From Candidatus Kaiserbacteria bacterium (GTDB lineage: Bacteria; Patescibacteriota; Minisyncoccia; Phycocordibacterales; JABMNX01), in contig JACPLB010000002.1 of the NCBI GenBank assembly GCA_016186705.1, forward strand, positions 20,811-84,810: DNA of 64,000 bases, given 5' to 3'. The notes under the pieces are model-generated. The model did no database searches. It had not been told where the DNA came from and saw nothing but the letters and a program-made list of their open reading frames with translations. Made by a program: the position numbers and the translations under genes. Positions 278-56,447 of this stretch are shown in pieces (position 1 is the stretch's first letter; every line of letters begins with the position of its first letter).

Positions 278-282
278 CACGC

Positions 283-311
283 TTGACAAAAGTTCTAGTG
301 TATGATACAAT
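283..311 (+). promoter_or_regulatory. Near-consensus sigma70 promoter: TTGACA, 17-nt spacer, TG-extended TACAAT
   Basis: TTGACA at 283-288, 17-nt spacer, TG at 303-304, TACAAT at 306-311. A paralogous copy sits at 34835-34863. Confidence 0.6.
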
Positions 312-363
312 GGCAACAGGAGATAGGATGCTAAGCATCCTGTCAAAAACCAGGAGGAACGTC

Positions 364-492
364 ATGTTCGCAGGGTTCTATTCGCTTCACCAGTTCTCAT
401 CGGCGCCGCGCCCCACCTTCAAGCAGAAGTGCGTCCAGCTCGCCATCGTCCTGTCCGTGGGGGTAGCGCTCATGGTCACCGGCGTCATTTAA
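364..492 (+). CDS. Small hydrophobic peptide, 42 aa, with a single predicted TM helix
   Basis: AGGAGG Shine-Dalgarno at 352-357 lies 6 nt before ATG 364. Product is MFAGFYSLHQFSSAPRPTFKQKCVQLAIVLSVGVALMVTGVI. A palindromic hairpin AGGATGCTAAGCATCCT (325-341) sits in the 5'UTR. The promoter is upstream and a terminator downstream. Confidence 0.4.
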   Translation: MFAGFYSLHQFSSAPRPTFKQKCVQLAIVLSVGVALMVTGVI

Positions 493-522
493 GTTCAGCG
501 CCGACATCCCCCACCCCCTATC

Positions 523-558
523 GAGACCGTATGGTTCGCCCAGCGGTCTCTTTCTTTT
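523..558 (+). terminator. Rho-independent terminator
   Basis: GAGACCG ... CGGTCTC stem followed by TTTCTTTTAC. Confidence 0.6.
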
Positions 559-640
559 ACGTATCAAATATACATATGGGTATGCTTTCAGTTGTCTCCA
601 ACACAGGTCTGTGATAGAGTGTCCCTCGTGCAATACAAAC

Positions 641-3942: not shown

Positions 3943-3972
3943 AAACGCGGCAAACGCCGCGTTTTGTGGTAT
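3943..3972 (+). terminator. Rho-independent terminator after ftsZ
   Basis: CGCGGCAAACGCCGCG hairpin followed by a T-tract. Confidence 0.55.
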
Positions 3973-4013
3973 GGTAAAAGCTGTAACCTAAAAGCTGTAA
4001 ACTCACATCTCGT

Positions 4014-4940
4014 ATGTACGACACTATCATTATCGGAGGAGGTCCTGCGGGCATTGCCGCCGGCGTCTATGCGGCGCGCAAACAGTTGAGGACCGTGTTT
4101 ATAACAAAAGAGTGGGGCGGACAGAGCGTCGTCTCTCCCGACGTGCAGAACTGGATCGGCACGCCTTCCATCCCGGGAGCAGAGCTCGCAAAAAACCTCA
4201 AGACTCACCTTGAAACTGTCGGGGGTGAGACCGTTGAAATTATTGCCGACGCATGCGTGACTCGCGCAGAAAAGAAAAGTGTCAACTTTACCGTCACACT
4301 CGACAATGGGAAGATGTTGGAATCAAGAACGCTCCTCATCACGAGCGGCGCACGTCGGCGGAAATTGGAAGTGCCGGGAGCGAAAGAATTCGACCAAAAA
4401 GGCCTTACCTATTGCGCGTCCTGCGACGGACCGTTGTTTTCAGGACAGGACGTCGCGGTCATCGGCGGAGGGAACGCCGGTTTTGAGACTGCCGCCCAGC
4501 TTCTCGCCTACACGAAGAGCGTCACACTTCTTCATTACAGAGATGAGTTTAAGGCAGACCCCGTCACCGTTCAAAAAGTACTGAAAAATCCGAAAATGAA
4601 GGCAATTATGAATGCGAGTACGACTGCCATCCTCGGCGACAAGTTTGTGACCGGATTAAAGTACAAGGACACGGTTTCCGGCGAGGAAAAAGAGCTCAAC
4701 GTGACCGGCGTCTTTGTTGAAGTCGGTCTTTTGCCGAACACGGGATTTCTCGGAAACCTCCTTGAGCTTGATGAGTTCAAGCGCATTAAAGTTGACCCAA
4801 GAAATCAGCGTGCGTCAGTCGAGGGTGTCTGGGCCGCGGGAGACTGCACGGACGGTCTCTTTCACCAGAACAACATCGCCGCAGGCGACGCAGTGAAAGC
4901 TATCGAAGATATCTACAACTTCCTCCACACAAAGCAATAG
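4014..4940 (+). CDS. trxB: Thioredoxin-disulfide reductase
   Basis: FAD motif GGGPAGIAAG, redox-active CASCDG, and an NADPH-binding GGGNAG motif. Confidence 0.9.
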   Translation: MYDTIIIGGGPAGIAAGVYAARKQLRTVFITKEWGGQSVVSPDVQNWIGTPSIPGAELAKNLKTHLETVGGETVEIIADACVTRAEKKSVNFTVTLDNGKMLESRTLLITSGARRRKLEVPGAKEFDQKGLTYCASCDGPLFSGQDVAVIGGGNAGFETAAQLLAYTKSVTLLHYRDEFKADPVTVQKVLKNPKMKAIMNASTTAILGDKFVTGLKYKDTVSGEEKELNVTGVFVEVGLLPNTGFLGNLLELDEFKRIKVDPRNQRASVEGVWAAGDCTDGLFHQNNIAAGDAVKAIEDIYNFLHTKQ

Positions 4941-4958: not shown

Positions 4959-6182
4959 CTAGGGCGCGCTCTTTAATATCCCGGAGACAATGTCTGTCTC
5001 TTTTGTAATTGACAAGCGGTTGTTGAGAAGAGTCACAAAAAGCGAGGCGATAGCCGCAATGAGAAAAGCGAATTTAATACTGAAGAAAAAGACTGTGACG
5101 CCGACAATGCCCAGAATAAGAACGCGTCCGAGATTGATGGATATCTCCTTGAGAACCGTGAATTCATCGATGTAATGCCCGTTATCGACCGCTTCGCTGT
5201 ATGTCGTCACGTCTATCGACATTTGATTGACTACCCTCCCAAGCCCGTGATAGGTGTCTACGATGAATATTTGAAACCCGGTCTCGATAAAAATTTTAAT
5301 GAACCATCCTGTTGCGTTGAGAATTGAGCCGATAGTAAGCGTTTTTCTTCTGCTCCATCGGTCCACCAAATCCCCTACCAGAAGACGGAGCATGATGACC
5401 GCAAAGATAGTCAATGAAGAAATCGCGCCGACGGTGAAATATTCTCCATTCAAAAGCAGAAAGATGAAGACGGGCCAGATGACGGCGGTTACGGCGGATT
5501 GAGCTCCGTCTCCCATGTACCCCACGAGAATGGAGCGATTCTGCGTACTGAAGAGTTTCCGGTACGTCTCCGTGTACGTGTAAGAGTAATGCTCATACTT
5601 ATCTCTGATAAAGAAAAGCGGAAAGACGGCAAAAATCAGGATGATGAGAGAGATAACAAACAAGTAATTGAACCCCGCAGCGATGATAATGCCTCCACCG
5701 ATAAGCGGCGTGACGACCGCGACGACTTCGGAAATGCTCAACAATATCGACATTTGCCTCCCTCTCGTCTTTTTGTCGGTAAAGGTCGCAAAGTCAACAT
5801 GATACGGCACCCAGTAGAGAACCTTGTACACCACTGACGCGAGCACAAGTCCGATCGGCGCGTAGAGAGGCGCGTAATCCCACAGGAGAAAAGGCAGAAT
5901 TGAGAGAAACGCAAAAGGCATCGCGTACATCATGAGTTTCTTCATGCCAACCTTGGATATCGCCATTGCGCCGAGAGGCGTAAAAATAATGCACAAAATG
6001 TATATCAAGGAGAGAAGCCCGATGACTTTTTCAAGCGACCCGTTGAATTTATTAAAAATAAAAATGATCTCAAAGATGCCGACGACTCCGAATCCGAGCT
6101 GTATTAAGAGCCGGTTAAGGTAGAGGGCGAGAATATCAAAAGAAAAATGGACCCCCTGATAGTCTTTGACGCTTAATTTCAT
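4959..6182 (-). CDS. MFS-type multi-TM transporter
   Basis: About 12 predicted hydrophobic helices. General MFS-like architecture. Confidence 0.65.
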   Translation of the reverse strand: MKLSVKDYQGVHFSFDILALYLNRLLIQLGFGVVGIFEIIFIFNKFNGSLEKVIGLLSLIYILCIIFTPLGAMAISKVGMKKLMMYAMPFAFLSILPFLLWDYAPLYAPIGLVLASVVYKVLYWVPYHVDFATFTDKKTRGRQMSILLSISEVVAVVTPLIGGGIIIAAGFNYLFVISLIILIFAVFPLFFIRDKYEHYSYTYTETYRKLFSTQNRSILVGYMGDGAQSAVTAVIWPVFIFLLLNGEYFTVGAISSLTIFAVIMLRLLVGDLVDRWSRRKTLTIGSILNATGWFIKIFIETGFQIFIVDTYHGLGRVVNQMSIDVTTYSEAVDNGHYIDEFTVLKEISINLGRVLILGIVGVTVFFFSIKFAFLIAAIASLFVTLLNNRLSITKETDIVSGILKSAP

Positions 6183-6269
6183 TGCTCTCTAGCGTAGCAT
6201 TTTCTGAACTAAAAACGGAGAAAAGTGGGTTGATATCTTTATGATAGTTAATCGTGAAGTCCAATCTAG

Positions 6270-6343
6270 TGCACGCACCAGGACTCGAACCTGGGACCTT
6301 CTCAACGTCAATGAGACGCTCTAGCCAACTGAGCTATGCGTGC
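6270..6343 (-). tRNA. tRNA-Val(GAC)
   Basis: The reverse complement folds as a cloverleaf with acceptor stem GCACGCA/TGCGTGC. The anticodon loop is TTGACGT. CCA is not encoded. Confidence 0.85.
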
Positions 6344-6459
6344 GCTCCGATTAGAGTGCACAAATTCTGCAAAAAGGTCAACGGAACTGGCGGGCTACCT
6401 CAAGCTACCTGTCCGACCCTGGAGGAGAACTCTGGTGAATCAAGCCCCGTAAGGCTATT

Positions 6460-7590
6460 CTAGCCCTTTTCCAAAGTTAAACCGAAGGTTCCCTGTGCGC
6501 CTTTTTTCAAGAGTTCTCTTTGTGACCTTTTAAACGCATTTTCGACAATATCCCAATATTGTTGAGAATTAACTTTCTCAAGATGCTCTTTTGGCCAATC
6601 GTTTCCATATGCATCCCATTTTAATTCCTTAAATTTCAAGCCATTTCCAAAATACTTTATCTTCGAGTACGTTTCTTTTCTAATAGAAACATTGTATGCA
6701 CTAGAAAACGTTACTGCTATATCATAAGTAAATTCATTATATCCCCAATAAGGTTCTCCAATATCACCATAAAGTATGGGATTGAAAACAAAGAAAAACA
6801 TTTGCAGTTTCTTGCCTCGGAATTTATAGACATCAAACTCACCTATAGTTGTAGACCACCCATAAAAATCATCGATATCAAAAAATCGCTCATTTAAATT
6901 TGCCATATTGCTCACAACTCCTATAAGATTAAAAACAAGCGATTTATCTTTTGAGTCATAGATGAAGAACCAATACTTATAACCCCTTAGTTCAATATCC
7001 GAAAGAATCTTAATTGGTCGTTTTTCTTTTGGATCATGCCGTTCAAATATTGATCTATCTCTTGGATTGAAATCTACTCGAAAATTTGCGCATTCCGCTA
7101 ATCCAGAAGGGCTCAACCCATAGTTTTTTGCTAAATATTCCCATTCGGTAATTTTACGAGGAGAAGGAGTATGTATTGTAAATGCCACTATCATTAAAAT
7201 CAAAATAACCGTTATATAAATTGCAAAGATTAGAAGTCCCGTATTATAGAAAATATAGGACAAAATATTTTCTTCACTAGGAATTGTGGCTAGAAACAAA
7301 AAGAAAGCCGCCAAACCCGTGGTTATTCCTCCCCAAACCAAAAAACGAATCGATTGTCTTATCTCTTGGTGTCTTAATTTATAGTCTTTTAGAATATCAG
7401 TAATTTGTTTTCTCTGTTCCTTCCTTTTGTTGTCACTTTTTTCTTCTAAAAATGATTTTGGTTTTATCAGTCTCCTTAGTCTTGCTCGAAACTCTCTTAA
7501 ATCTTTTAAGGATGGCACTATAAAAAGCGAGAATATGAAAGTATATAAGGCAAAGGTTGCGATTGTAAAAATAGGTGTATAAAGCTCCAT
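6460..7590 (-). CDS. Island gene A: membrane protein with 4 predicted TM helices and a ~220-aa aromatic-rich soluble C-terminal domain; no recognisable family
   Basis: AT-rich ORF, about 33% GC. The likely start is MELYTPIF; the track offers an alternative start at 7668. TM helices are followed by a W/Y/F-rich domain with no motif I recognise. Confidence 0.6.
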   Translation of the reverse strand: MELYTPIFTIATFALYTFIFSLFIVPSLKDLREFRARLRRLIKPKSFLEEKSDNKRKEQRKQITDILKDYKLRHQEIRQSIRFLVWGGITTGLAAFFLFLATIPSEENILSYIFYNTGLLIFAIYITVILILMIVAFTIHTPSPRKITEWEYLAKNYGLSPSGLAECANFRVDFNPRDRSIFERHDPKEKRPIKILSDIELRGYKYWFFIYDSKDKSLVFNLIGVVSNMANLNERFFDIDDFYGWSTTIGEFDVYKFRGKKLQMFFFVFNPILYGDIGEPYWGYNEFTYDIAVTFSSAYNVSIRKETYSKIKYFGNGLKFKELKWDAYGNDWPKEHLEKVNSQQYWDIVENAFKRSQRELLKKGAQGTFGLTLEKG

Positions 7591-7847
7591 AAACTTAATT
7601 AAGCACCTCGTGCTAGCTGTTAGATGCGGGGACGATTGCCGGAACTTTGAACCGAAAGCATGGCTCAAATTCGAGGATCTTGATAAAAGTATACAGAAAT
7701 TAAGGGCTATCTACAAAGTTCATCCAGAATGGTTTGAGGTACCAAAGCCTAAATCAAACAGAGGCAAGAGTGAAATTGATTATTCAGTATCTTGAGTAAT
7801 TGTTATGCCTCAATAGTTGACTCCTATACAGATTAAAGATTTTTATC

Positions 7848-9158
7848 TTAATCAATCTTAAAACCCTTCTTTTGCTGTTCTTTAAGAATTTTTTCGTATA
7901 TTCCACCTTTTCCATAAGGCACTCTTACGGGCATATCAATCTTGCATTCGATATTAGGTACTGTTCCCTTATGGGGAACTGGAATTTGAATATCGCCTTC
8001 TTCCATAAGAAGTTTTGCTAATTCAGCAACGTCATACTCTACAGTGCCAAGAGTTTCATCTTTTTTATCACCAAACATATGAATAATTACTTTGGGAATC
8101 TTACTTTTATCAAGATGCATGAGACAGCACTTCACGATATTAAGCATTTGATATTCATATTTGACTGATTCCTCTAGATGAACGATATCGTAAGCTTCTG
8201 CGGTGCCGAAAAATATTTGCTCATTTCTTCCGATGATTGGAGGATCGTATTTAAGTGATATTTCAAGTACTGTTCTATCATTATCTAATTTGAATTCTTT
8301 CAAAAGAAAACTGCGATTAGTCGCAAAGGACTCGGCTATTTCCTTGATTTCTCGAATTTTGTATACACGCTTGCTAACTATTTTTGCTTCAACGTCAGGA
8401 TTATTTTCCAAAAAGATTAGAAGTCCATTTCTTAAAATCCAGAGGTTAACTCTGCATGTTTGCAGAATGTCTCTTAGTTGTCTTTGCGTGAATTCATAGC
8501 GCTTCTTTTCTTTACCACTTTTATCATCAACCACCTTAAGGACAACCGTCTTATTATCAGTTGTTTCCCATCTATCGTGTCCGGCCCCAGCGTTACGTAT
8601 ATGGTTATCAAAGCCAGAGACTAGGTCCGGAAAATTACCATTCGGTAATGAAAAAGAGGTATTTTTTATCGTTTGAAATTTTTCTCCCGCTGAGACATCA
8701 ACAAACATCTCTGCATCTTTAACAGCATGAGTTTTGCCGTACTTTTTACATAGATAAAAGTATGGGGTCGTTCCATACAACCTAAAGTCACTCTCAAAAA
8801 GAGTTTTATATAAGCTCAACTGACAAGAGAAAATTGTTTCAAGCTCAGAACCTTTCAAAGCACTATAAAGAGAATCTTCGGCCTGTTCCGTCCGCAGACC
8901 GGAATCATTTGCAGTATCGATTATTGTACTAACAACTTGAAGGAATTCTGCCTCATTTTCTTTATATAATTGTTCACACAGTTCCTCGATAAATTTTGTT
9001 GCTTTGAGATCTTTCTGCTGAACAGAATGTCTCCAACCGAGCCAGCCTTGCTGAAAGAAATACCTTACATTCTTTGGTCGTTTGTTTGGATGCTTTAAAA
9101 GTGGTTGGATATAGACTTCAAAATATCTACTTTCTGCCGCTAAGTTTGAATCAAGCAT
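7848..9158 (-). CDS. Island gene B: 436-aa hypothetical protein with a candidate HEPN-like Rx5H motif
   Basis: AT-rich ORF. Contains FDNHIRNAGAGHDRWE, i.e. R-N-x4-H, which is compatible with the HEPN Rx4-6H signature. The start ATG overlaps the upstream gene's TGA by 8 nt. Confidence 0.6.
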   Translation of the reverse strand: MLDSNLAAESRYFEVYIQPLLKHPNKRPKNVRYFFQQGWLGWRHSVQQKDLKATKFIEELCEQLYKENEAEFLQVVSTIIDTANDSGLRTEQAEDSLYSALKGSELETIFSCQLSLYKTLFESDFRLYGTTPYFYLCKKYGKTHAVKDAEMFVDVSAGEKFQTIKNTSFSLPNGNFPDLVSGFDNHIRNAGAGHDRWETTDNKTVVLKVVDDKSGKEKKRYEFTQRQLRDILQTCRVNLWILRNGLLIFLENNPDVEAKIVSKRVYKIREIKEIAESFATNRSFLLKEFKLDNDRTVLEISLKYDPPIIGRNEQIFFGTAEAYDIVHLEESVKYEYQMLNIVKCCLMHLDKSKIPKVIIHMFGDKKDETLGTVEYDVAELAKLLMEEGDIQIPVPHKGTVPNIECKIDMPVRVPYGKGGIYEKILKEQQKKGFKID

Positions 9159-9867
9159 TGTTCTTTACTCTATACTCTAAAAGTAAGTACGAATTTTCGA
9201 GTGGCCTTGCCTGGATAAATTCAAGGGCCTTTATTTTTTTGAGTTCTCCCGAAGTATGTAACGATTCCCCATCCATTAAAGTCGATGTATTTTTGCCACC
9301 AATGAGAGCGGGAGCAACTACCAACCAAACACGATCAATTAAACCTTCTCGCACCAAGGTGGTATTTAAAGTTCCACCTGATTGAATTGTGAGTTTGTCA
9401 GCCCCGAAATCTTGTTTCAGTATCGTAAACAAATCATTGAAATCTACAACTTCTCCATATTCAAAAACGTAGAGGTTGTCAAAATCATTTTTGAGAGATA
9501 CTGCTGGATGATTTTTGTTTGTTGTAGCAATGATAAGATTCTTTGCTTTCTTCGCAAGATATGAGATTCCTTGAGCGGTGAGGTGTGGCTCGTTATCGAT
9601 AACCACAAAACTTACTGGTAATTTCTTCGGTTCATCTTTTTTCTCATTCATTCCAATCTTCGCAAAGACTCTTCCCGTGTTAAGGGAAAACAGGTCAGTT
9701 TGTTGCTCTAGATCGTAGTATTGTTGTAAACCTTCTTTGATACCTGAAATTTTAGGGAAATCCTTATCCACATCTAAAACATCGCTATCGCCAGTCGAGA
9801 TTTTGCCATCGACAGACATAAGCATGAATAGTGTTGTGTCCGGTCTGTTTTTATCTTTATTTTCCAT
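9151..9867 (-). CDS. Island gene C: RibD C-terminal domain / dihydrofolate-reductase-like family protein
   Basis: LFMLMSVDGKIS at the N-terminus, and GLIDRVWLVVAPALIGG ... YLLLEYRV at the C-terminus. These are typical of pfam RibD_C / YwjB-like reductases. Confidence 0.75.
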   Translation of the reverse strand: MENKDKNRPDTTLFMLMSVDGKISTGDSDVLDVDKDFPKISGIKEGLQQYYDLEQQTDLFSLNTGRVFAKIGMNEKKDEPKKLPVSFVVIDNEPHLTAQGISYLAKKAKNLIIATTNKNHPAVSLKNDFDNLYVFEYGEVVDFNDLFTILKQDFGADKLTIQSGGTLNTTLVREGLIDRVWLVVAPALIGGKNTSTLMDGESLHTSGELKKIKALEFIQARPLENSYLLLEYRVKNNA

Positions 9868-9886
9868 AGGTTCAAAGTTGCCAATC

Positions 9887-9976
9887 TGGCGGAGAGGGAG
9901 AGATTCGAACTCTCGATGCGGTTTCCCGCATGCCGGTTTTCGAAACCGGTGCCTTCAACCACTCAGCCACCTCTCC
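9887..9976 (-). tRNA. tRNA-Ser(CGA)
   Basis: Reverse complement is GGAGAGGTGGCTGAGTGGTTGAAGGCACCGGTTTCGAAAACCGG...CTCTCCGCCA. It has a long variable arm and encodes CCA. It closely resembles E. coli tRNA-Ser. Confidence 0.9.
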
Positions 9977-10143
9977 AATATACTATATGTGGTTGGCTTC
10001 AAGACTAGCACTTTTTGCCGAAATGCCCAAAGTATTGTACTATCTCAAAATAACACACGTGTATGTGTTATTTATTTTGGCTTACATAAAGTACCTAAAA
10101 GCTAAAAGCTCAAACCTGTAAGCTTCCGTCAACTGGCAGATAC

Positions 10144-18977: not shown

Positions 18978-19100
18978 ATGCTTTTTCATAAGCGCACAAA
19001 AAAGGTGGTCAAATACGTTTGGATCGTGCTCGGGGTGCTCATTATCCTTAGCATGATACTGTTTTTCTCTCCGGGACTTATCCCCGGCGTCGGATATTAA
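18978..19100 (+). CDS. Possible unannotated 40-aa membrane peptide
   Basis: MLFHKRTKKVVKYVWIVLGVLIILSMILFFSPGLIPGVGY has a basic N-terminus and one TM helix. It is below the track's length cutoff, and there is no clear Shine-Dalgarno. Confidence 0.25.
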   Translation: MLFHKRTKKVVKYVWIVLGVLIILSMILFFSPGLIPGVGY

Positions 19101-24982: not shown

Positions 24983-25094
24983 GAGTCTTTACATTAAATG
25001 TTCATATAACTATACCAAATAACAACGCGTGAGGTAACGAATTCTGTGAGTATAAAAGAAAACAGCCCCGCTTGCGCGGGACTGTTTTCATATA

Positions 25095-25478
25095 TCTCAC
25101 TTGTATCTATAAGCCGAATTCTGTATCTCTCACTTGGATGATCTAGGTGAGGGGTGATAGCTATTTATCTGGTCCCGACGTTACCGTCGGGATCAAGCGG
25201 CACTTCCGCCGGCTGGCGGACGCGGCCTTGCATTCAGGTAAGGATTTAGCCGTTTCACCCCCTCACATGCACTGCATGTGAGGGACTGCGCCTCCAATTG
25301 AGGAGGCACCCATACGTCTTTCGTTGTACGGCGTCTCTGCTCGCACCTCTATCCTTGCGGACGACGGGTGTTACCCGCTACCCTGCTCCCCTCACATGCG
25401 TTGCAGGTGAGGGGGAATGTTCGGACTTTCCTCCAGACGCCGCAGAGGGCATCCGGCAACTATCCGATACAAGCTGTG
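25095..25478 (-). ncRNA. rnpB: RNase P RNA (bacterial type A)
   Basis: The minus strand contains GGAGGAAAGUCCGAAC (P4 5' strand) and ACAGAAUUCGGCUUAUAG (P4 3' strand). It also has GGUAACACC, GGGGGUGAAACGG and GCAAGGCC modules. A P1 helix CUUGUAUC/GAUACAAG joins the two ends. Confidence 0.85.
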
Positions 25479-25529
25479 AACAGCATACCACAAAAAGTAT
25501 AAAAAGCAATTACTCTGTACGGCTCTAGA

Positions 25530-25576
25530 GAGGCAAGAAAAAATGCCACAGGGGTATGGGGCATTTTTTATTTCTT
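25530..25576. terminator. Bidirectional intrinsic terminator between nrdJ 3' region and rnpB
   Basis: AAAAAATGCC-loop-GGCATTTTTT, a 10-bp stem with T-tracts on both sides. Confidence 0.6.
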
Positions 25577-25608
25577 TTCATCTGAGCGAAGACTGCCCAT
25601 TTGAAAGG

Positions 25609-25665
25609 CTTCGCAGGTTGAGCGGGCATGGTATCCTAAGACTTCCAGTATACTGGAAGTCTTAG
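25609..25665. repeat. Conserved ~57-nt hairpin RNA motif, copy 1 (TGAGCGGGCATGG - 36-nt hairpin - ATGAGCGAG)
   Basis: Same core as 34773-34829. The hairpin arms differ at four positions with compensatory changes that preserve pairing. Confidence 0.6.
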
Positions 25666-25745
25666 GATGAGCGAGACCGAGACTTGAGAGTGGGCGCCTG
25701 CTGGGCGCCCAACTCGTACTTTCAAATGGGCAGTGTGAGCGACCT

Positions 25746-28139
25746 TTATTCTATTTCACACGTCCCTCCCGCGCACGCGAGCTCTTTTTTAACTTCGGTC
25801 TCGTCCTGAAGTTCGTACGTCATAAGCTTTGAATAGTCAACGTTTTCGAACCGTTGAACGAGCTTCTCGTATTGTTCTTTCGTAATTTCTTCATATGGAG
25901 CAAGCTGATAGAGATGGTTGCTTCGCGGCAGGAATGAGAGTCCGCCGATGATATCCCAGTTCTTATACAGCCAGTCGGCGACGGTAATCCATTCGTTTTC
26001 TCCTACCGAAATCGTCGTTGATGGATTGTGCTCGGTGAAGTTCTTTTTGACTATCTTCCAATGTTCAAGCTGGTCGAGCGCGGTAATCTCATCTCGAAAG
26101 ACAGTGCCCTTCGGGGACTTGACCGGAAACTCCAATACGAACGTGTTGGCGCTCTCCATCGTCTGTCCAACTTCCGGATGAAACGGCACTCCTTGGTCTT
26201 TGAGCATCTTAAAGAGCGAGTCGGTTGCGGAAATGCGGATGCGGCGAATGTAATACGGAGCGTGCCGCGGATGCATGCCAGAGGCGCAGTTCACTGTCTG
26301 TGAGACTGTTCCCGACGGCTTGACGCAGGTAATTGCGTTTGAATGGTTGACGCCAAATTTTTTTGCGTACTGTTTGTTGACCTTGACGGTCTCGGCGCGA
26401 AGTTTCTTCAAAACCGGCGCCTGCCGAACCGCTTTTGAATCCCATTGACCGGTCAAGGAGACTCCAAGCAGACGTTCCGCTTCACAGTTTTCTTTCCAAT
26501 CTTTTGAAAGATATCTGAAATTCGTGAGTGTTGACTGATACGTGCCGAGAATTGTCGCGATGCGCACCTTGCGCAAAAGTGACGCTTCCGTGTCCTCCGC
26601 TCGGCAAATAACTTCGGAGAGATTGCAGAACTGCTTCGACTGTAAAATAATTTCCCCGCACGGGTTTGTTCCCGGTCGGTTGATGCCGTGCTGACCACCC
26701 TCATCAGAATTGTCCTTGTACTTATTTTTCAAATAGGCAAGGCGTCTCTCCGGCAATTGCTTCACGAGACTCCCGCGGTTAAAGATTCCGCGTTCGCCCG
26801 TGCCCGCTTTCATGAGCGCAAACCACTCTTCCATGAACTCAAGGTTTGATGGTCTCTCCTCATAGACGGCGGAATTATTCGCGAGCGAACGCTGTGGATT
26901 CGCAAGCCAAAACTGCCCGTTTTTCGCGTCCCTGACATCGTCATCATCGAGGTCGGAGAGAGAAATCATTGCCGAGCGGCGAACACCGCCAGAGACAATC
27001 GCTTCACCGATTTTGCAGATAATGTCGTGTGCGTCTATGTTGCGCAGACGCCGCCCTTGACGTGAAAGTACCCGTTCACGGGCAAAATTAAGCAATTGCC
27101 GCAGCGGTTCAGGTCCCGATGCTTTGCCGCCCATGGTCTTCAGCCGAGACCCCGCGGGACGGACGTTGGAGTAATCAAACGAAACATCTTTACCGTCAAA
27201 CCATGCTCGAAGACCATGAAGAAGAGCGTCTGCCCATCCTTCCGCCGAATCAGGTACGACGAAGACCTCGAGTTTTTTTCCAGTCTGCGGTTTGATCTGC
27301 GGAAGCTGTCCGATGTTCCAGCTCTCCACTCCAAAACCGACACCCGTTCCTTTTGACGAGAGGTAGAGAATTTCCGCGAAATCCTCGAGTCTCGTCGGCG
27401 CAATGTAGGAACAATTGTACGCGCAGACATTGCATTTGCGGGCGGCATCTCCGGCAAACTGCATGAGCCGCATTGACGGCATGACTTCCTGTTTGAGAAC
27501 TGCTTCCCGGATTTCCGTGTACTCTTTTGCGGTAAGTTTCGTCCCGAGATTCTCTTTCATAAAGCTGATGTAGCGGTCGACCGTTTCAATCCACGTCTCA
27601 CGCCGCCCCTCTTCACCTACCCAGCGCGCGTATGAACGCAGATACACAAAGTAGCCGAGGTCGTTTCCTTTAAAATATTTCGCGCTCTCCTCCGAAAGTT
27701 TTTTGACGCGCTCCGGTACGACAATGCCGAGCTCGCGAAGCTTTGCGCGTTCCGCCCGATAGAGAATGTACGATTTCGCAGTGACAACGTAATCGCCCAA
27801 AATGAGCTGCCGTTCTACTTCGTCCTGACATCCTTCGACGGTCGGCATGAAGTTACGGTATTTTCGCGCAATGCGAACCATGTCCGACGCCACCCGGTGC
27901 GCAACCATGATAGATTCCTCTTTTGAGCCCTCATTGCTTGCGACCATTGCCTTATGAATCGCGTGCGCAATCTTGTTGAAGTCAAATGGAACAATGCGTC
28001 CGTCGCGCTTTTGGATTTTACCGATAAATTTCTTGTAATCGGCTGCGTTGACGACATCTTTTTCTTGCGTGTCGACTTTTGTGTTCATAATCTCGTTAAT
28101 GTGCGCACGAGCTTTTTCCTGTTTGCGGGCATTGAGCAT
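25746..28139 (-). CDS. nrdJ: Ribonucleotide reductase, class II (adenosylcobalamin-dependent), with N-terminal ATP-cone
   Basis: NPCGEI active-site motif and C-terminal CAGGTCEIE redox tail. N-terminal ATP-cone (HINEIMNTKV...). Confidence 0.85.
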   Translation of the reverse strand: MLNARKQEKARAHINEIMNTKVDTQEKDVVNAADYKKFIGKIQKRDGRIVPFDFNKIAHAIHKAMVASNEGSKEESIMVAHRVASDMVRIARKYRNFMPTVEGCQDEVERQLILGDYVVTAKSYILYRAERAKLRELGIVVPERVKKLSEESAKYFKGNDLGYFVYLRSYARWVGEEGRRETWIETVDRYISFMKENLGTKLTAKEYTEIREAVLKQEVMPSMRLMQFAGDAARKCNVCAYNCSYIAPTRLEDFAEILYLSSKGTGVGFGVESWNIGQLPQIKPQTGKKLEVFVVPDSAEGWADALLHGLRAWFDGKDVSFDYSNVRPAGSRLKTMGGKASGPEPLRQLLNFARERVLSRQGRRLRNIDAHDIICKIGEAIVSGGVRRSAMISLSDLDDDDVRDAKNGQFWLANPQRSLANNSAVYEERPSNLEFMEEWFALMKAGTGERGIFNRGSLVKQLPERRLAYLKNKYKDNSDEGGQHGINRPGTNPCGEIILQSKQFCNLSEVICRAEDTEASLLRKVRIATILGTYQSTLTNFRYLSKDWKENCEAERLLGVSLTGQWDSKAVRQAPVLKKLRAETVKVNKQYAKKFGVNHSNAITCVKPSGTVSQTVNCASGMHPRHAPYYIRRIRISATDSLFKMLKDQGVPFHPEVGQTMESANTFVLEFPVKSPKGTVFRDEITALDQLEHWKIVKKNFTEHNPSTTISVGENEWITVADWLYKNWDIIGGLSFLPRSNHLYQLAPYEEITKEQYEKLVQRFENVDYSKLMTYELQDETEVKKELACAGGTCEIE

Positions 28140-33925: not shown

Positions 33926-34486
33926 CTAGAACGTTACCTTAACAGGTTCTTTCGCGGCATTCTCGCCTTCTCCCAGTTCGAAGAACTCCTGTTTGCCGAA
34001 GTGAAATGTATTTCCGATGATATTCTGGGGAAACGATTCCAGAGCGGTGTTGAGGTCCCGCACATTGCCGTTGTAAAAGCGCCGCGCTGCCTGAATTTTG
34101 TTTTCGGTGTCGGAGAGTTCCCGTTGAAGCTCAAGAAAGTTCGCGTTTGCCTTAAGGTCGGGGTAACTCTCCGCAACCGCGAAGAGCGACTTGAGCGCGT
34201 CTGTAAGCATGTTCTCCGCCCGCCCTTTTTCGTTAAGCCCGCCCGCCTGCATTGCCTTTGCCCGCATCTCGGTCACTTGCGCAAGTGTCTTCTTTTCATG
34301 AGCCGCGTATCCCTGTACGGTATTCACCAAATTCGGAATGAGGTCGTAACGGCGTTTCAGCTGAACGTCAATGTCCGCCCACGCCTCCTTCGCGCGGTTC
34401 ATAAACGTTACAAACCGATTGTAGGCAAAAATCGCCCACAGTACGATAACCACGATAATTCCTAAGACAATATAGAGGGTAGTCAT
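33926..34486 (-). CDS. lemA: LemA family protein
   Basis: N-terminal TM helix plus the LemA signature ...RRYDLIPNLVNTV. Confidence 0.85.
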   Translation of the reverse strand: MTTLYIVLGIIVVIVLWAIFAYNRFVTFMNRAKEAWADIDVQLKRRYDLIPNLVNTVQGYAAHEKKTLAQVTEMRAKAMQAGGLNEKGRAENMLTDALKSLFAVAESYPDLKANANFLELQRELSDTENKIQAARRFYNGNVRDLNTALESFPQNIIGNTFHFGKQEFFELGEGENAAKEPVKVTF

Positions 34487-34772
34487 AATGTAGCTTTTAG
34501 GTGTTAGCTTTTAGGGTTAAAATTTACCAAGCAATTATACAACAATCGGGCAAAATAAAAAAGCTTTGTTTAATAGATGACCGATAAAAACGAGTGTGTC
34601 TCTTTTTGAAAGCTATCGGAGGCGGCAGAGCTTGGTTTCATTCTTTCCTTTTTAGCGAGAGAAAACAGGTTTCTGGAACATTCACAGGAAAATTGTGTAT
34701 ATTTCTTTTTCTATTCAAGCGAGTCTTCTGCTTGAGGAAGACTTTCCGCCGGAGGGGCGGATAAACTCCACC

Positions 34773-34829
34773 TGAGCGGGCATGGCATCCAAGGACTTCC
34801 AGTATATTGGAAGTCCTTGGATGAGCGAG
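34773..34829. repeat. Conserved ~57-nt hairpin RNA motif, copy 2
   Basis: TGAGCGGGCATGG + CATCCAAGGACTTCCAGTATATTGGAAGTCCTTGGATG + AGCGAG. Confidence 0.6.
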
Positions 34830-34834
34830 GTGCC

Positions 34835-34863
34835 TTGACAAAAGTTATAATATGGTATATAAT
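34835..34863 (+). promoter_or_regulatory. Consensus sigma70 promoter: TTGACA, 17-nt spacer, TATAAT
   Basis: CTTGACAAAAGTT...TATAAT. It is paralogous to the promoter at 283-311. Confidence 0.6.
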
Positions 34864-34916
34864 TAACAACAGGATTCAGATGATGTCATCTGGAATGGTT
34901 CAGAGGAAGTTTCACC

Positions 34917-35171
34917 ATGACTACATCGCAAACGCAAACCCAAATCAACGTGAGGACACTCTTCTTTGCGTGTGCCTTCGCTGGGCTCTTCGTTGTTTCG
35001 GCCTTGATCCCGGTTTTCTCAAGTCCGATCTTCAGCTACCTGGTCCTGGCACTCGATATGAACGTCCTGCTCGCGTACCTCCTGTCGAACTTCATCGTTG
35101 CCACGATCGCCTTCGTCGCCTTTCTCTTCTACATGCGGAAGATGACGCAACGAAAGCCGACCGGGGGCTAA
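34917..35171 (+). CDS. Small membrane protein, 84 aa, 2 TM helices
   Basis: Consensus promoter, a palindromic 5'UTR hairpin CAGATGATGTCATCTG, and a GAGGAAG Shine-Dalgarno precede the ORF. A strong terminator follows. Confidence 0.5.
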   Translation: MTTSQTQTQINVRTLFFACAFAGLFVVSALIPVFSSPIFSYLVLALDMNVLLAYLLSNFIVATIAFVAFLFYMRKMTQRKPTGG

Positions 35172-35185
35172 CAAGGTCCGACGCA

Positions 35186-35222
35186 CCCCGCCACTCTCTC
35201 TTTTGAGTGGCGGGGTTTAAGT
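35186..35222 (+). terminator. Rho-independent terminator
   Basis: CCCCGCCACTC-loop-GAGTGGCGGGG followed by TTTAAGTTTT. Confidence 0.7.
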
Positions 35223-35335
35223 TTTATCTACACGAATACTCAAGTGCTTTTATGCCTGAGAGCGTCCCGTCGAGGAGAAACTGAAGCATCGCGCCGCCGC
35301 GCTTTTCTTTTTAATTTTTCCACTTAAGCGAGCAA

Positions 35336-35454
35336 ATATAAGTTTATAGAACATTCGCAGGAAAATTTGCATGGTTCTGCGCAAGCAGAAAATTTTCCGA
35401 GGACGAAGAAAATCACTCGCTGGAGTGATTTTCTGATTCTATAAACTTATATTT
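35336..35454. repeat. 18-bp perfect inverted repeat pair flanking ~85 bp, downstream of groEL
   Basis: AAATATAAGTTTATAGAA ... TTCTATAAACTTATATTT. Internal smaller palindromes are present. Confidence 0.5.
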
Positions 35455-35467
35455 CACGAGCGACCCA

Positions 35468-37129
35468 TTACATCATCCCCGGCATCCCGCCTCCCATGCC
35501 GCCCATTGGAGGCATGCCGCCGCCTTTCTCTTCCTCTGGCTCGTCCGCGATCGCGACCTCCGTTGTAAGGAGCATTGCCGCAGCTGACGACGCATTCTGG
35601 AGACAGCTTCGTGTTACCTTGACCGGGTCGAGAATTCCAGCAGAGAGCATGTCGTCAACAATCATGTCTTGTTTCGCGTCATACCCGCAGTTTACTTTTC
35701 CGCTCTTTACTTTCTCGACAATGACGGAGCCGTCTTCCTTACCGGCATTGATGACGATTTGCTTCAATGGCGTCTCAAGCGCGCGAAGCACTATCTCAAA
35801 GCCGACGGCTTCTTCCTGGCTCATGTTGCCTTTATTCTTTTCAAATTGGTTGCGTACTTTTTGCGCGACTTTCACGAGCGCCGTCCCGCCACCCGGAACA
35901 ACGCCTTCTTCTACCGCCGCTTTCGTCGCATTGACCGCGTCTTCAATCTTAAGCTTGAGATACTTCATTTCAGTTTCAGTCGCCGCTCCGACACGAATAA
36001 TCGCAACTCCGCCGGAGAGTTTCGCGATTCGCTCCTCTATTTTCTCCGCGTCAAATTTCGAGTCAATCCCCTCAAGCTGTTTTCGCAACTGCGCGACACG
36101 TGCTTCAATGTCCGCCTTTTTCCCTTTCCCTCCGACAATAACGGTTTTGTCCTTGTTTGAAACGACACGGCTTGCTTTGCCGAGCATACCAAGTTCAGCT
36201 TTTTCGAAAGTAAGTCCCCGTTCCTCTGAAATGACTTCTCCGCCGACAACCGTCGCGATATCTTCAAGCATCGCTTTCTTTCGGTCGCCATACCCCGGAG
36301 CTTTCACAGCCAAAACATTAAACGCTCCGCGAAGTTTATTAACGACAAACGTTGCGAGTGCTTCTCCATCCACGTCATCCGCGATAATTACCAAATCTTT
36401 TCTGCCCGTCTGCGCGAGTTTTTCAAGAAGCGGAAGAACTTCCTGCACCGACGAAATTTTCTTGTCGGTAATGAGAATTTGAATGTCCTTGTATTCTGCC
36501 TCCATTCTTTCAGAATTTGTGACCATGTACGCGGAAACGTAGCCGTTGTCGAACTCAAGACCCTCAACCACTTCCTTTTCAATGCCAAGCGACTGCGATT
36601 CCTCAACGGTTACGACACCGTCTTTGCCGACTGCATTAATGGTGTCCGCGATAATTCTTCCGATATCGTCCGACTCCGCGGAAATTGTGGCGACCTGTTT
36701 TATTTCTTCCTTTCCCTGGATCGGTTTTGCGATTTTATAGAGCGCCGCCACAGCTTCTTTCGTCGCCTGCTCAATGCCGGAGCGGATACCCATGGCATTT
36801 ACTCCCATCGTTGCCTGCTTGAAACCTTCGTTCGCGATTGCCTGCGCAATAACGACTGATGTTGTTGTTCCGTCACCGGCAATTTCATTTGTTTTGTGGG
36901 CAACCTCTTTGATAATCTCGGCGCCCATGTTTTCAATTTTGTCCTTGAGACTTATTTCTTTCGCGATAGACACGCCGTCATTTGTAATCATCGGCGCTCC
37001 GAACCCCTTGTCCACAACCACGTTGCGTCCCCGAGGGCCGAGCGTTATTTTGACCGCATCCGCGACCTGGTCAATGCCTCTTTTCAGAAGGCGGCGAGCT
37101 TGTTCATCAAAAATAATCTGTTTTGCCAT
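35468..37129 (-). CDS. groL: Chaperonin GroEL
   Basis: Full-length Cpn60 with the C-terminal GGM repeat. Confidence 0.97.
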
Positions 37130-37196
37130 ATTGTTTTAATTTTAAATCTTGTAGATTTGAGACATTCCCTAAAAGCTCAAAGCTAACACCTAAAAG

Positions 37197-39739: not shown

Positions 39740-41587
39740 ATGGTAGAACGAAAAAATGAAGGTGGTCGTAGTCGGCAATTACCGCGACGTCGACTCTCGC
39801 GCGGCAGGCGAAATAGCGGACAGAAAATGCAGAGGAAGCAGGCGACGACAAGCAAGCGTATGGTGCACAGGCATCATACGGAGACTCCCTTAAGGCATAA
39901 GCACGAGCCTATCCCCGAGATTATAGACGGCGTCCGGATTGTTCCGCTCGGCGGGGTTGAGGAAGTCGGGAGAAACATGACGGTTGTGGAAACATCTACG
40001 GATATTCTTATTGTTGACGCCGGTTTTCAATTCGTGTCAGAAGAAACGCCGGGGGTTGATTACGTTCTCCCTAACACCCGCTACCTTGAAGAGAGGAAAG
40101 GAAAGATTCGCGCGCTTCTTATAACACACGGGCATCTTGACCACATCGGCGGCATTCCTTTTATTCTTGACCGTATCGGTAATCCTCCGATTTACACTGG
40201 CGAACTTACGTCCATCATGATAAAAAAACGGGCGGAAGAATTTGTCGGTATCAAGCACGATGTGAAAGTGCTTGACCCTCACGTGCCGATTACATTCGGC
40301 TCATTCAGAGTGCGCACTTTCCCCGTTACCCACTCGATTCCGGACTCAACCGGTATGATTATAGAGACCGAATACGGCAATGTTGTGTTAAGCGGCGACC
40401 TCAAGCTTGAGCATAAAGACGGAGTACCAACAAAAAAAGAGGAGGAGGTGTACGGCGCAATCGGCAAGGAAAAGAATCTGATATTTATTGCCGATTCAAC
40501 AAATGCGGAGAGAACCGGCTTTTCAATTCCAGAACAGGTCGTCTACGATACTATTGAGAATATTATCCGCACCACCGAAGGGCGCATTATTATAGGCACA
40601 TTTGCTTCCCAATTCGAGCGCATGATACGAATTATCGGCATTTGTGAGCAACTTGGCAAAAAGGTGATCACGGAAGGCCGAAGCATCAAGACTAACATTG
40701 AAATTGCCGAACGCGCAGGCCGTCTCAAACCGAAAAAAGGAACTATTATCCCCGTCCAAGAGATCGACAATTACCCGCCGGACAGAGTCGTTATTCTTGC
40801 GACCGGCGCGCAAGGGGAAGAGTTTGCGGCTCTCATGCGCATCGCAACTGGCAAACATAAATTTATCAAAATGACGAGGCGCGACACCGTCGTACTCTCC
40901 TCTTCGGTTATTCCGGGGAACGAGCTTTCCGTGCAACGTTTGAAAGACAACCTGTATCGGCACGCGGGGCACATCATCCACTACAGAGCGTCCGATGTAC
41001 ATTCGACCGGACACGGGAACACCGGAGAACTCGTATGGATAAACAAGAAGGTGGGAGCGAAATTTTTCATGCCGGCATACGGATATCATTCTATGCTTCG
41101 ATGTCATGCAAACGCGGTTATCGAATCGGGATTCCCAGAGAAGAATATCGCTGTGCCGGACAACGGCACAATCATTGATATCATTAAAGGTGAGCGGATG
41201 ATTGTGCAAAAGGCGACGGCTCCCTCGGGTCCTATGATGGTTGACGGCTTCTCGGTTGGTGGTGTCCAGGACGTAGTCATACGAGACCGGAAGACACTTG
41301 CGCAAGACGGCATGTTCGTCGTTATTGCGACTATTAATGTACGTACCGGAAAACTGCGAAAGTCTCCCGACATCATTTCCCGCGGATTCGTGTATCTGCG
41401 CGAGTCGCAGGAGCTTCTCCAGCAAACGCGGCTCATCATTAAAAAAAGCGTCGAGAGCTCGACTGAGGGAATGCATCCGATTAATTTCGACTACGTGAAG
41501 AATAATATTACCGACGCGGTAAGTGCGTTTCTCTTTCAAAAAACCAATAAGCACCCGATCGTCATACCGGTCCTTCTGGGAGTTTAA
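39740..41587 (+). CDS. rnj: Ribonuclease J
   Basis: HGHLDHIGG metallo-beta-lactamase motif in a beta-CASP architecture. The N-terminus has an Arg-rich extension, so the true start may be an internal Met near 39827-39860. Confidence 0.85.
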   Translation: MVERKNEGGRSRQLPRRRLSRGRRNSGQKMQRKQATTSKRMVHRHHTETPLRHKHEPIPEIIDGVRIVPLGGVEEVGRNMTVVETSTDILIVDAGFQFVSEETPGVDYVLPNTRYLEERKGKIRALLITHGHLDHIGGIPFILDRIGNPPIYTGELTSIMIKKRAEEFVGIKHDVKVLDPHVPITFGSFRVRTFPVTHSIPDSTGMIIETEYGNVVLSGDLKLEHKDGVPTKKEEEVYGAIGKEKNLIFIADSTNAERTGFSIPEQVVYDTIENIIRTTEGRIIIGTFASQFERMIRIIGICEQLGKKVITEGRSIKTNIEIAERAGRLKPKKGTIIPVQEIDNYPPDRVVILATGAQGEEFAALMRIATGKHKFIKMTRRDTVVLSSSVIPGNELSVQRLKDNLYRHAGHIIHYRASDVHSTGHGNTGELVWINKKVGAKFFMPAYGYHSMLRCHANAVIESGFPEKNIAVPDNGTIIDIIKGERMIVQKATAPSGPMMVDGFSVGGVQDVVIRDRKTLAQDGMFVVIATINVRTGKLRKSPDIISRGFVYLRESQELLQQTRLIIKKSVESSTEGMHPINFDYVKNNITDAVSAFLFQKTNKHPIVIPVLLGV

Positions 41588-50486: not shown

Positions 50487-50699
50487 GTGTCTATCGAAAT
50501 GAAAACGGCGCGCCTTATAAAAAGGGCGCGCCGTCCTTGCGCTATTAGAGACGCTTGCTACACTATGTATATGTTTGGACAAGGATACGGATACATGATG
50601 TCGGGATTTGGAGGCATTGGTTTTATCCTGTGGCTTCTCATCATCATTGACCTTGCACTCCTCGGCATCTGGCTCTGGAAGAAAATTTCAAAGGAATAG
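50487..50699 (+). CDS. Small Gly-rich membrane protein, hypothetical
   Basis: ...GFGGIGFILWLLIIIDLALLGIWLWKK. The start is uncertain and may be 50565. Confidence 0.3.
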   Translation: MSIEMKTARLIKRARRPCAIRDACYTMYMFGQGYGYMMSGFGGIGFILWLLIIIDLALLGIWLWKKISKE

Positions 50700-56007: not shown

Positions 56008-56447
56008 ATATATTAAGTGTACATTATATTTAAATAGAAAAACAAATTGGAGAAAACTTTCAAGCAAATCTATGGAGTTAAGAGAAACCCCGCACAAGAG
56101 GCGGGGCTGAAGCTGGAGAGTGAAAATAAATTGAAGAAAAAGAACCTAAAGACGGAGACTTTCCCGGCGGTAGAAACACCTTCCAAGCTCAATGCAGGTC
56201 GCGAAGCCTGCACAAAGGGTCATATCGAGCAATACCATGTAAGCTCGACCGGCCAAGTCCGCTCCCGCTAGGCAACAGCCTCGGGAGGCGCACTATTTCG
56301 CTCAACAAGATTTTCTGCAGAAAGTCCTGTCGAGTTACTTTGAGAGTGGTCACTCCATGTCCGTCTGCTTTTAGAAGTGTACCAAAATTATTTGAAAAAA
56401 GTCAAGGGATTGTTTTTAACTGCTTGTGAATATGATAATTCGCTCTG

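Follow-up and report, generated by a model that had tools for sequence, protein, structure and literature searches.

The 64,000-nucleotide stretch analysed here (the window) comes from a metagenome-assembled genome of an uncultured Candidatus Kaiserbacteria bacterium, a member of the Candidate Phyla Radiation (CPR)/Patescibacteria, with locus tags HYW58. It contains two short units, module 1 and module 2, each composed of a promoter, a leader, a small open reading frame (ORF) for a hydrophobic peptide and a terminator. The ORF encodes 42 amino acids in module 1 (ORF42) and 84 amino acids in module 2 (ORF84). With a probability of about 0.6, we consider both modules to be moron-like genes, that is, horizontally acquired and autonomously expressed genes for small membrane proteins, carried on a related promoter and leader. 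They would have been gained in this Kaiserbacteria lineage between core genes, hisS and rpsU for module 1 and lemA and groEL for module 2. The promoters and leaders of the two modules are related, and their coding cargo is unrelated. As the original prediction had proposed from the DNA letters, each module is a self-contained promoter-ORF-terminator unit, and all the features that it listed for the two modules were present.

Promoters and leaders of the two modules

Module 1 has the 3' end of hisS (stop codon at 275-277) on one side and the genes rpsU-ybeY-ftsA-ftsZ on the other. The promoter of rpsU (TTGTCT-17-TAGAGT, 592-620) is downstream of the module 1 terminator. Flanked by lemA (33926-34486, minus strand) and groEL (35468-37129, minus strand), module 2 points to the 3' end of groEL, which is convergent with it. 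The elements of both modules are listed in Table 1. Our terminator scan, with its loop limit of 8 nt, had skipped the terminator of module 1.

Perfect copies of TTGACA-N17-TAYAAT were found only at these two sites in 64 kb. When one mismatch was allowed, there were four sites, compared with 0.35 expected. In a scan with spacers of 16-18 nt, the groES promoter (37590-37563, minus strand) was the sole other promoter of equal quality, and it has neither the CTTGACAAAAGTT flank nor the CAACAGGA motif seen in both modules. By itself, the repeated 13-mer CTTGACAAAAGTT was insignificant in 64 kb: blastn gave E values of 0.2-0.4, with other chance 13-mers alongside. Sequences with up to two mismatches to it occurred at chance frequency in the window, and the remaining near-matches were not promoters. 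The significance of the resemblance comes from its context, the flanking consensus promoters, and not from the bare 13-mer. For a pair of consensus promoters, contiguous identity over 7 nt or more next to the -35 element has a probability of ~4e-4, and a shared 8-mer within 16 nt past the -10 element at near-equal offset has a probability of ~5e-4. Their product gives a joint context-conditioned chance of ~2e-7 for the -35 flank and the start-site 8-mer.

The resemblance extended, more weakly, into the leader. A global alignment of the two modules from the -35 element to the ATG codon was better than all of 5000 shuffles (p ~2e-4). Promoter and start site were identical at 31 of 41 nt (76%, by hand count). 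Past CAACAGGA, the leaders were weakly similar (p ~0.014) in the GATG...CATC hairpin arms, CAG(G)AGGAA and the ATG codon; they are nearly equal in length and carry their elements in the same order. The 3' untranslated regions (UTRs) shared only CCGAC and a C-rich run 6-8 nt past the stop codon (p ~0.04), and ORF42 showed no similarity to ORF84 in DNA or protein. The notion of a duplicated expression cassette is therefore appropriate for ~41 nt of promoter and start site and, weakly, for the leader, and does not apply to the ORFs or to the bulk of the 3' ends, which are unrelated. Between the modules and the rest of the window, there were only chance matches of 11-14 nt.

The original prediction had also proposed a search for further copies of the module. 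No copy and no true homologue of the promoter-leader pattern were found in scans of the JGI metagenomes, IMG/VR and the loci of the fetched relatives. Pattern matches in three contigs (L007, L008 and L016) were rejected as module copies, as they fall in a phage primase coding region. In another metagenomic contig (L009, VOFE01001726.1, 56% GC), a rubrerythrin gene is preceded at 8920-8963 by GCTTGACAAAAGTTCT...TATAAT...AACAGGA. This promoter matches 16 nt of the -35 region of module 1, either by coincidence or as a widespread design of strong promoters.

One alternative is that the modules are two independent genes, the promoters of which converged on an optimal sigma-70 design with no common origin or cassette. 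This could explain why the modules are unrelated beyond the promoter, why the bare 13-mer is at chance level in 64 kb, and why the unrelated rubrerythrin promoter has the same motifs. However, the 7 extra bases beside the -35 element and CAACAGGA are outside the sigma-70 consensus, with the small joint chance given above, and the groES promoter reaches equal strength without either of them. Convergence of promoters would also not be expected to produce leaders of near-identical length with the same order of elements or the same atypical codon bias in both ORFs (see below). We regard this explanation as unlikely.

A perfect palindrome had been claimed for each 5' UTR. This is correct for module 1, where AGGATGCTAAGCATCCT occupies 325-341 within the 5'-proximal stem-loop. 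In module 2, the arms of the corresponding CAGATGATGTCATCTG (7 nt each) are separated by a central TG, and the palindrome is therefore not quite perfect. Sequence and half-site spacing differ between the two palindromes, which argues against a common repressor site. We read them as 5' stabilisers rather than operators because the hairpins are 5'-proximal and the host encodes RNase J (39740-41587). In organisms with RNase J, mRNA is stabilised by a hairpin located at the 5' end or close to it, as it is by a strong ribosome-binding site (RBS) (PMC3997798, section 7).

The two modules might be expressed as follows. The consensus sigma-70 promoter would fire constitutively and strongly, giving a monocistronic transcript. 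Transcription is predicted to start ~7 nt past the -10 element, inside CAACAGGA, which would place the stem-loop 4-5 nt from the 5' end, where it may shield this end from 5'-end-dependent decay. The exposed purine-rich RBS would then allow translation of a small integral membrane protein. The terminator of module 1 would insulate rpsU, and that of module 2 would stop an antisense run into groEL. The promoter, start site and leader would either share a common ancestry or have been rebuilt on the same template.

The ORFs as genes for small membrane proteins

Judged from their composition and translations, both ORFs look like real coding sequences for small membrane proteins. GC at the first, second and third codon positions was 0.57, 0.40 and 0.86 in ORF42 and 0.48, 0.39 and 0.76 in ORF84. 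In host genes of the window, GC at the third position (GC3) had a mean of 0.52 (standard deviation 0.08) and a maximum of 0.70. None of 13,399 sliding 42-codon windows from 43 host genes had a GC3 of at least 0.86, and only 0.16% of the host 84-codon windows had a GC3 of at least 0.76. Synonymous codon choice differed between the modules and the host for TTC (86% versus 39%), ATC (86% versus 34%) and CTG (33% versus 9%), and the shift ran the same way in ORF42 and ORF84. Among all small intergenic ORFs of the window, these two stood out as GC3-rich and hydrophobic. Two other short hydrophobic intergenic ORFs, at 18978-19100 and 50595-50699 (both plus strand; 40 and 34 amino acids), have a host-like GC3 of 0.59-0.60 and could represent small membrane proteins native to the host.

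The N-terminal half of ORF42 is polar and basic, and a single transmembrane (TM) segment at about residues 22-42 reaches the last residue. In ORF84, a polar N-terminus is followed by a hydrophobic core of ~60 residues (about 12-73) and a basic tail, RKMTQRKPTGG. A single-sequence AlphaFold model of ORF84 consisted of helices at 3-33, 37-45 and 48-78 (mean pLDDT 70.6, pTM 0.42). The proposal of small membrane protein genes, one of several made originally, thus agrees with the strong period-3 GC pattern, the TM segment in ORF42 and the hydrophobic core in ORF84. The products would be a 42-amino-acid protein with a C-terminal anchor and an 84-amino-acid multi-helix protein with a basic tail, both predicted to be located in the membrane.

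These genes had been thought to be missing from annotations, but both are already carried by NCBI as hypothetical proteins, HYW58_00635 for module 1 and HYW58_00845 for module 2. HYW58_00845, on a 93-kb contig, is identical to ORF84. HYW58_00635 is a 54-amino-acid version that starts at an in-frame ATG codon at 328. This codon lies inside the palindrome and its 10-bp stem, ~10 nt from the predicted transcript start. We favour the ATG codon at 364 because AGGAGG sits 6 nt before it and because ATG 328 is within the stem. A gene call on the Logan assembly also takes ATG 364 as the start. The module 1 product thus probably consists of 42 amino acids from ATG 364, and the start of HYW58_00635 is probably mis-set.

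Shine-Dalgarno (SD) sites were infrequent among the host genes. In the 25 nt upstream of genes starting with ATG, only 4 of 39 genes carried a suitably spaced SD-like match of 4 nt or more; none was present for groEL, groES, ftsZ, ftsA, lemA or the RNase J gene. The motif is a perfect AGGAGG in module 1 and GAGGAAG in module 2. We made two further observations on translation starts. In the relatives, rpsU appears nearly leaderless, with a -10 element (TACAGT) ~11 nt before its ATG codon. In the window, a motif, (C)CTAAAAGCT, often doubled, is found at 34491-34515, 37167-37192, 3972-4010 and 10093-10117, just upstream of the starts of lemA, groES and a gene at 4014 and also beside tRNA-Glu. It might act as a non-SD leader element or in regulation.

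Searches of 5.8 billion clustered proteins with ORF42 and ORF84 returned only the queries themselves. An exhaustive HMMER search of 1.84 billion representatives with ORF84 returned itself and a spurious 27-residue match in a 2104-amino-acid protein. There was no match for the module peptides in PHROGs, NCBIfam or PADLOC, and no match for the modules in plasmids (tblastn), in phages including INPHARED (blastn) or in IMG/VR. Six-frame translation of both modules contained no recognisable gene fragment. Conservation of the peptides in relatives, by which the original prediction was to be judged, was absent, as no homologue of either peptide was found. The lack of module copies and of peptide conservation argues against a conserved family, but not against the status of the ORFs as genes.

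The modules could also be small non-coding RNA genes in which the ORFs are incidental. A promoter-terminator unit of ~240 or ~360 nt is a typical layout for such genes, and both peptides lack protein homologues. Folding of the predicted transcripts was somewhat better than that of shuffled sequences (z = -2.2 and -2.7), but these z-scores are modest and driven by the 5' hairpin and the terminator. Moreover, the period-3 GC pattern has its third-position peak in precisely these frames, the ATG starts are at the correct spacing past RBS motifs, and the translations are coherent TM-type sequences. Rfam, searched over the whole window, gave no match at the modules at the gathering score; at E values up to 10, it gave none for module 1 and only sub-threshold, chance-level matches around module 2. 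There was no tRNA or tmRNA at the modules. An origin of the two units as RNA genes is therefore improbable in our view.

Sites in related genomes and other features of the window

Module 1 was absent from all five species-level relatives (58-71% identical in HisRS) that keep the hisS-rpsU-ybeY-ftsA synteny. The hisS-rpsU spacer is 48-90 nt long in these relatives, with the rpsU promoter only, and 363 nt long in the window. The extra DNA starts right after the hisS stop codon and ends near 560. The NCBI contig and independent Logan assemblies carry module 1 and its flanks in identical form. Because the same sequence was recovered in both, it is not an assembler artefact. A contig from another sample (L023) starts at window position 597, just past module 1; we weighed this as a hint of strain polymorphism for module 1, but it was uninformative.

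At the other site, the order groES-groEL-spacer-lemA-NUDIX-M48 was kept in the 10 fetched relatives, and the spacer between groEL and lemA was highly variable. L010, the closest relative, with 95% identity in GroEL protein and 85% in groEL DNA, has a 373-nt spacer with no ORF and lacks module 2. In L015 and L017, the spacer is 123-129 nt long and has a terminator-like hairpin only. Other relatives have a gene for a GDVxxI-repeat protein of 127-144 amino acids on the opposite strand (L011 and L018), a Cys-rich ORF of 129 amino acids (L019) or a gene for a two-TM protein of ~100 amino acids on the groEL strand (L014 and L021, 49% identical to each other). L012 was grouped with L014 for this conserved ~100-amino-acid spacer protein. 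ORF84 was compared with the ~100-amino-acid membrane protein of L014 and L021, and no relation was found. When the spacer sequences were read by eye, each cargo gene of the relatives had its own consensus-like promoter, SD-like site and terminator hairpin. The leaders of the spacer genes of L019 and L018 appear, from the sequence only, to begin with a hairpin. Because the relatives hold different cargo there, we consider the groEL-lemA spacer to be a hot spot for self-contained small accessory genes. Among the genomes compared, ORF84 would be the version of this spacer that is unique to the present one.

Repeats are found around module 2. The 57-nt hairpin unit upstream of its promoter (Table 1) is composed of TGAGCGGGCATGG, a 16-bp hairpin and ATGAGCGAG. 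Both stem differences between this unit and its paralogue are compensatory double changes, and the two copies fold with -34 and -33 kcal/mol (z = -5.5 and -7.1). The paralogue at 25619-25675 sits within a larger hairpin that lies 3' of the ribonucleotide reductase (RNR) gene. The unit is absent from the groEL-lemA site of L010. A 59-nt direct repeat brackets module 2 together with the hairpin unit, its copies lying ~140 nt and ~90 nt outside the module. Its left copy resembles a partial duplicate, consisting of a T-rich/AAGCGAG unit and the left arm of the groEL 3' hairpin. The 59-nt repeat may be a trace of the segment's insertion. In place of the terminal inverted repeats and target-site duplication expected of a miniature inverted-repeat transposable element (MITE) or an insertion sequence, module 2 is bracketed only by this diverged direct repeat.

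From these comparisons, we infer a horizontal origin of the modules. The source was most likely a GC-richer organism using SD sites, because of the codon bias of the ORFs, the canonical SD of module 1 and the absence of the modules from relatives. Several points weigh against this reading. No donor or homologue was found, so that the horizontal origin rests on composition and on absence in relatives. The nearest relative compared at module 1 is only 71% identical in HisRS, and the relatives might instead have lost the module. At module 2, the groEL DNA of the nearest relative compared has 85% identity, and the gain is therefore not necessarily very recent. The flanks of module 1 showed no terminal inverted repeats, target duplication or recombinase. 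The ORFs are short, which makes their GC3 estimates noisy, and the antisense frame of ORF42 uses the same wobble positions. Finally, the shared promoter could reflect convergence on a strong design, as the unrelated rubrerythrin promoter would illustrate.

If acquired horizontally, the modules would be a clean case of gene arrival, as complete promoter-to-terminator units with foreign codon usage in spacers that hold other cargo in relatives. Module 1 would have brought a canonical SD into a genome whose genes mostly do without one. Overall, this would be a tidy and fairly ordinary gain of accessory genes, useful for annotation and not surprising. The genomes of CPR bacteria are tiny, and these bacteria are believed to rely on contact with their hosts at the cell surface. 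Lineage-specific, strongly expressed small membrane proteins would be plausible players in this lifestyle. Our guess is an accessory membrane role, such as phage exclusion or host interaction. A bolder possibility, which we hold to be quite doubtful, is that the shared promoter, box, hairpin and RBS form a reusable expression chassis that brings diverse orphan ORFs for small membrane proteins into intergenic hot spots of CPR chromosomes, or with which they are assembled there. This would amount to a chromosomal, phage-independent moron system, possibly with an insertion mechanism tied to the GAGCGA-flanked hairpin repeats around module 2. If so, the chassis would be one route to immediate expression of accessory genes after transfer.

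Table 1. Positions of the elements of modules 1 and 2 and of the repeats near module 2 in the window
Feature	Position	Strand	Description
Module 1 promoter	282-311	+	CTTGACAAAAGTT 282-294; -35 TTGACA 283-288; 17-nt spacer; TG-extended -10 TACAAT 306-311
Module 1 start-site box CAACAGGA	314-321	+	Predicted start ~316-318, from distance to -10
Module 1 5'-proximal stem-loop	322-344	+	10 bp, 3-nt loop; -15.3 kcal/mol, z = -3.4
Module 1 Shine-Dalgarno AGGAGG	352-357	+	6 nt before ATG 364; unpaired in predicted centroid fold
ORF42	364-492	+	MFAGFYSLHQFSSAPRPTFKQKCVQLAIVLSVGVALMVTGVI; 42 amino acids; GC3 0.86
Module 1 intrinsic terminator	523-558	+	Hairpin 523-550 followed by TTTCTTTT; -16.2 kcal/mol
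Module 2 promoter	34834-34863	+	CTTGACAAAAGTT 34834-34846; TTGACA 34835-34840; 17-nt spacer; TATAAT 34858-34863; 12/12 consensus
Module 2 start-site box CAACAGGA	34867-34874	+	Predicted start ~34869-34871
Module 2 5'-proximal stem-loop	34875-34894	+	8 bp; contains CAGATGATGTCATCTG 34877-34892
Module 2 RBS AGAGGAAG	34902-34909	+	Purine-rich; partly in weak second hairpin 34895-34916 abutting start codon
ORF84 (HYW58_00845)	34917-35171	+	ATG 34917; 84 amino acids; GC3 0.76
Module 2 intrinsic terminator	35185-35228	+	Perfect 12-bp GC-rich stem 35185-35216, 8-nt loop, followed by TTTAAGTTTTAT; -27.8 kcal/mol, z = -5.5
57-nt hairpin unit	34773-34829		5 nt upstream of module 2 -35; paralogue 25619-25675, 89% identity
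59-nt direct repeat, left copy	34636-34694	+	76% identity to right copy; spacing 673 nt
59-nt direct repeat, right copy	35309-35367	+	Runs into long hairpin element 3' of groEL

Several other features of the window were recorded. Immediately past the stop codons of groEL and RNR are long, multi-branched hairpins (35334-35454 and 25595-25730, respectively; 120-150 nt, z = -6.4 to -9.5). Direct GAGCGA/AGCGAG motifs flank them, as does a T-rich tract, purine-rich in the sense orientation. Four relatives (L010, L011, L018 and L019) have hairpins of other sequence with the same flanks at the orthologous position 3' of groEL, and intergenic GAGCGA motifs cluster in the groEL and RNR 3' spacers. Rfam gave no match to the long hairpins over 25470-25760 and 34500-35500. 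They could be a fast-evolving structured 3' UTR element or a family of repeats resembling repetitive extragenic palindromes or MITEs.

The bacterial class A RNase P RNA was found at 25094-25475 on the minus strand, with 103.5 bits against a gathering score of 100. It holds a 27-nt inverted repeat pair (25258-25284 and 25389-25415), which suggests lineage-specific helices. A low-GC island at ~6000-10000 (GC 0.37-0.38, compared with ~0.49 elsewhere; GC3 ~0.30) carries ORFs of 402, 436 and 238 amino acids. It is bounded by tRNA-Val (6269-6343) and tRNA-Ser (9887-9976) and is probably a separate horizontally acquired segment. At ~56130-56400 on the minus strand, a promoter-like TTGACT...TACACT downstream of tRNA-Gln is followed by a GC-rich stretch of ~250 nt that looks non-coding and by a T-rich tract. 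This region is a candidate for an unannotated non-coding RNA; Rfam gave only sub-threshold matches there (GcvB, 19.6 bits). Upstream of it are two tandem mini-ORFs for CxxC...CxxC zinc ribbons.

Alternative functions and known systems

Type I toxin-antitoxin loci, which encode membrane-damaging peptides held in check by antisense RNA and mRNA structure, had been among the possibilities suggested for the modules. ORF42, with fewer than 60 amino acids and one TM segment, would be a suitable toxin. Both mRNAs have a structured 5' UTR and their own terminator, and the ORFs are orphans, as such toxins often appear in searches. In principle, read-through from groEL into the convergent module 2 could yield an antisense RNA. 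However, a consensus scan detected no opposite-strand promoter in or beside either ORF, even at 8 of 12 matches, and the promoters on the side of the putative toxins are of consensus strength, equal to that of groES. The SD of module 1 is unpaired, the 5' hairpins leave the RBS uncovered, and the RBS of module 2 is covered only by a weak hairpin (5 + 3 bp). ORF84 exceeds the typical size, and in ORF42 no charged tail follows the TM segment, which occupies the extreme C-terminus. PADLOC and NCBIfam gave no match, and Pfam gave none above its cut-off. We consider the toxin explanation quite unlikely.

ORF84 might be a phage holin or a prophage remnant, with ORF42 likewise derived from a phage. 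This was suggested by a match of ORF84 to the Pfam family Phage_holin_3_6 (PF07332; E value 0.0011), by its holin-like layout, with hydrophobic helices between a polar N-terminus and a basic C-terminal tail, and by the moron-like architecture of the modules. The score of this match, 19.4 bits, is under the cut-off of 28.4 bits, and PHROGs, INPHARED and IMG/VR gave nothing. Both modules have core genes on both flanks, with no adjacent endolysin, lysis cassette or other phage gene. An origin as a holin or prophage remnant is accordingly very unlikely.

A leader peptide or attenuator of rpsU, a version of the leader or regulatory peptides also suggested at first, is excluded for module 1 by its own terminator, the separate rpsU promoter and the absence of the module in five of five relatives; its predicted fold showed no alternative pairing with the terminator arm.

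Our preferred reading, moron-like small membrane-protein genes, can be compared with several known systems. Like the stabilising stem-loops of ompA, papA, aprE and ermC, the modules would have a hairpin within ~5 nt of the 5' end together with a strong RBS, in a host with RNase J; in the modules, the transcription start is predicted and stabilisation is a proposal only. The type I toxins Hok, TisB, Fst, Ibs and Ldr are similar to the modules in their short hydrophobic peptide, structured leader and own terminator. The modules differ from them in having no antisense RNA gene, no sequestration of the RBS, a consensus promoter and a single copy, and in the 84-amino-acid member.

Putative mobile promoters are defined by an identity of 80% or more across 50 nt or more in the region from -150 to -50 (Matus-Garcia, Nijveen and van Passel 2012; PMC3575422). 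As in these, a related promoter precedes non-homologous genes in one genome. The identity between our modules (31 of 41 nt, 76%) is below this level and spans the region from -35 to +10.

The closest resemblance is to phage morons, which have a promoter and a terminator of their own, a deviating GC content and are extra in comparison with related genomes (PMC3594210). Their product is often a small membrane protein, such as that of HK97 gene 15, a small inner-membrane protein (PMC3594210). The modules, like morons, are extra DNA between conserved genes, with their own sigma-70 promoter, a factor-independent terminator and a deviating composition. In contrast to phage morons, they have no phage genes nearby, and their flanks are CPR housekeeping genes, hisS and rpsU-ybeY-ftsA-ftsZ for module 1 and lemA and groEL-groES for module 2.

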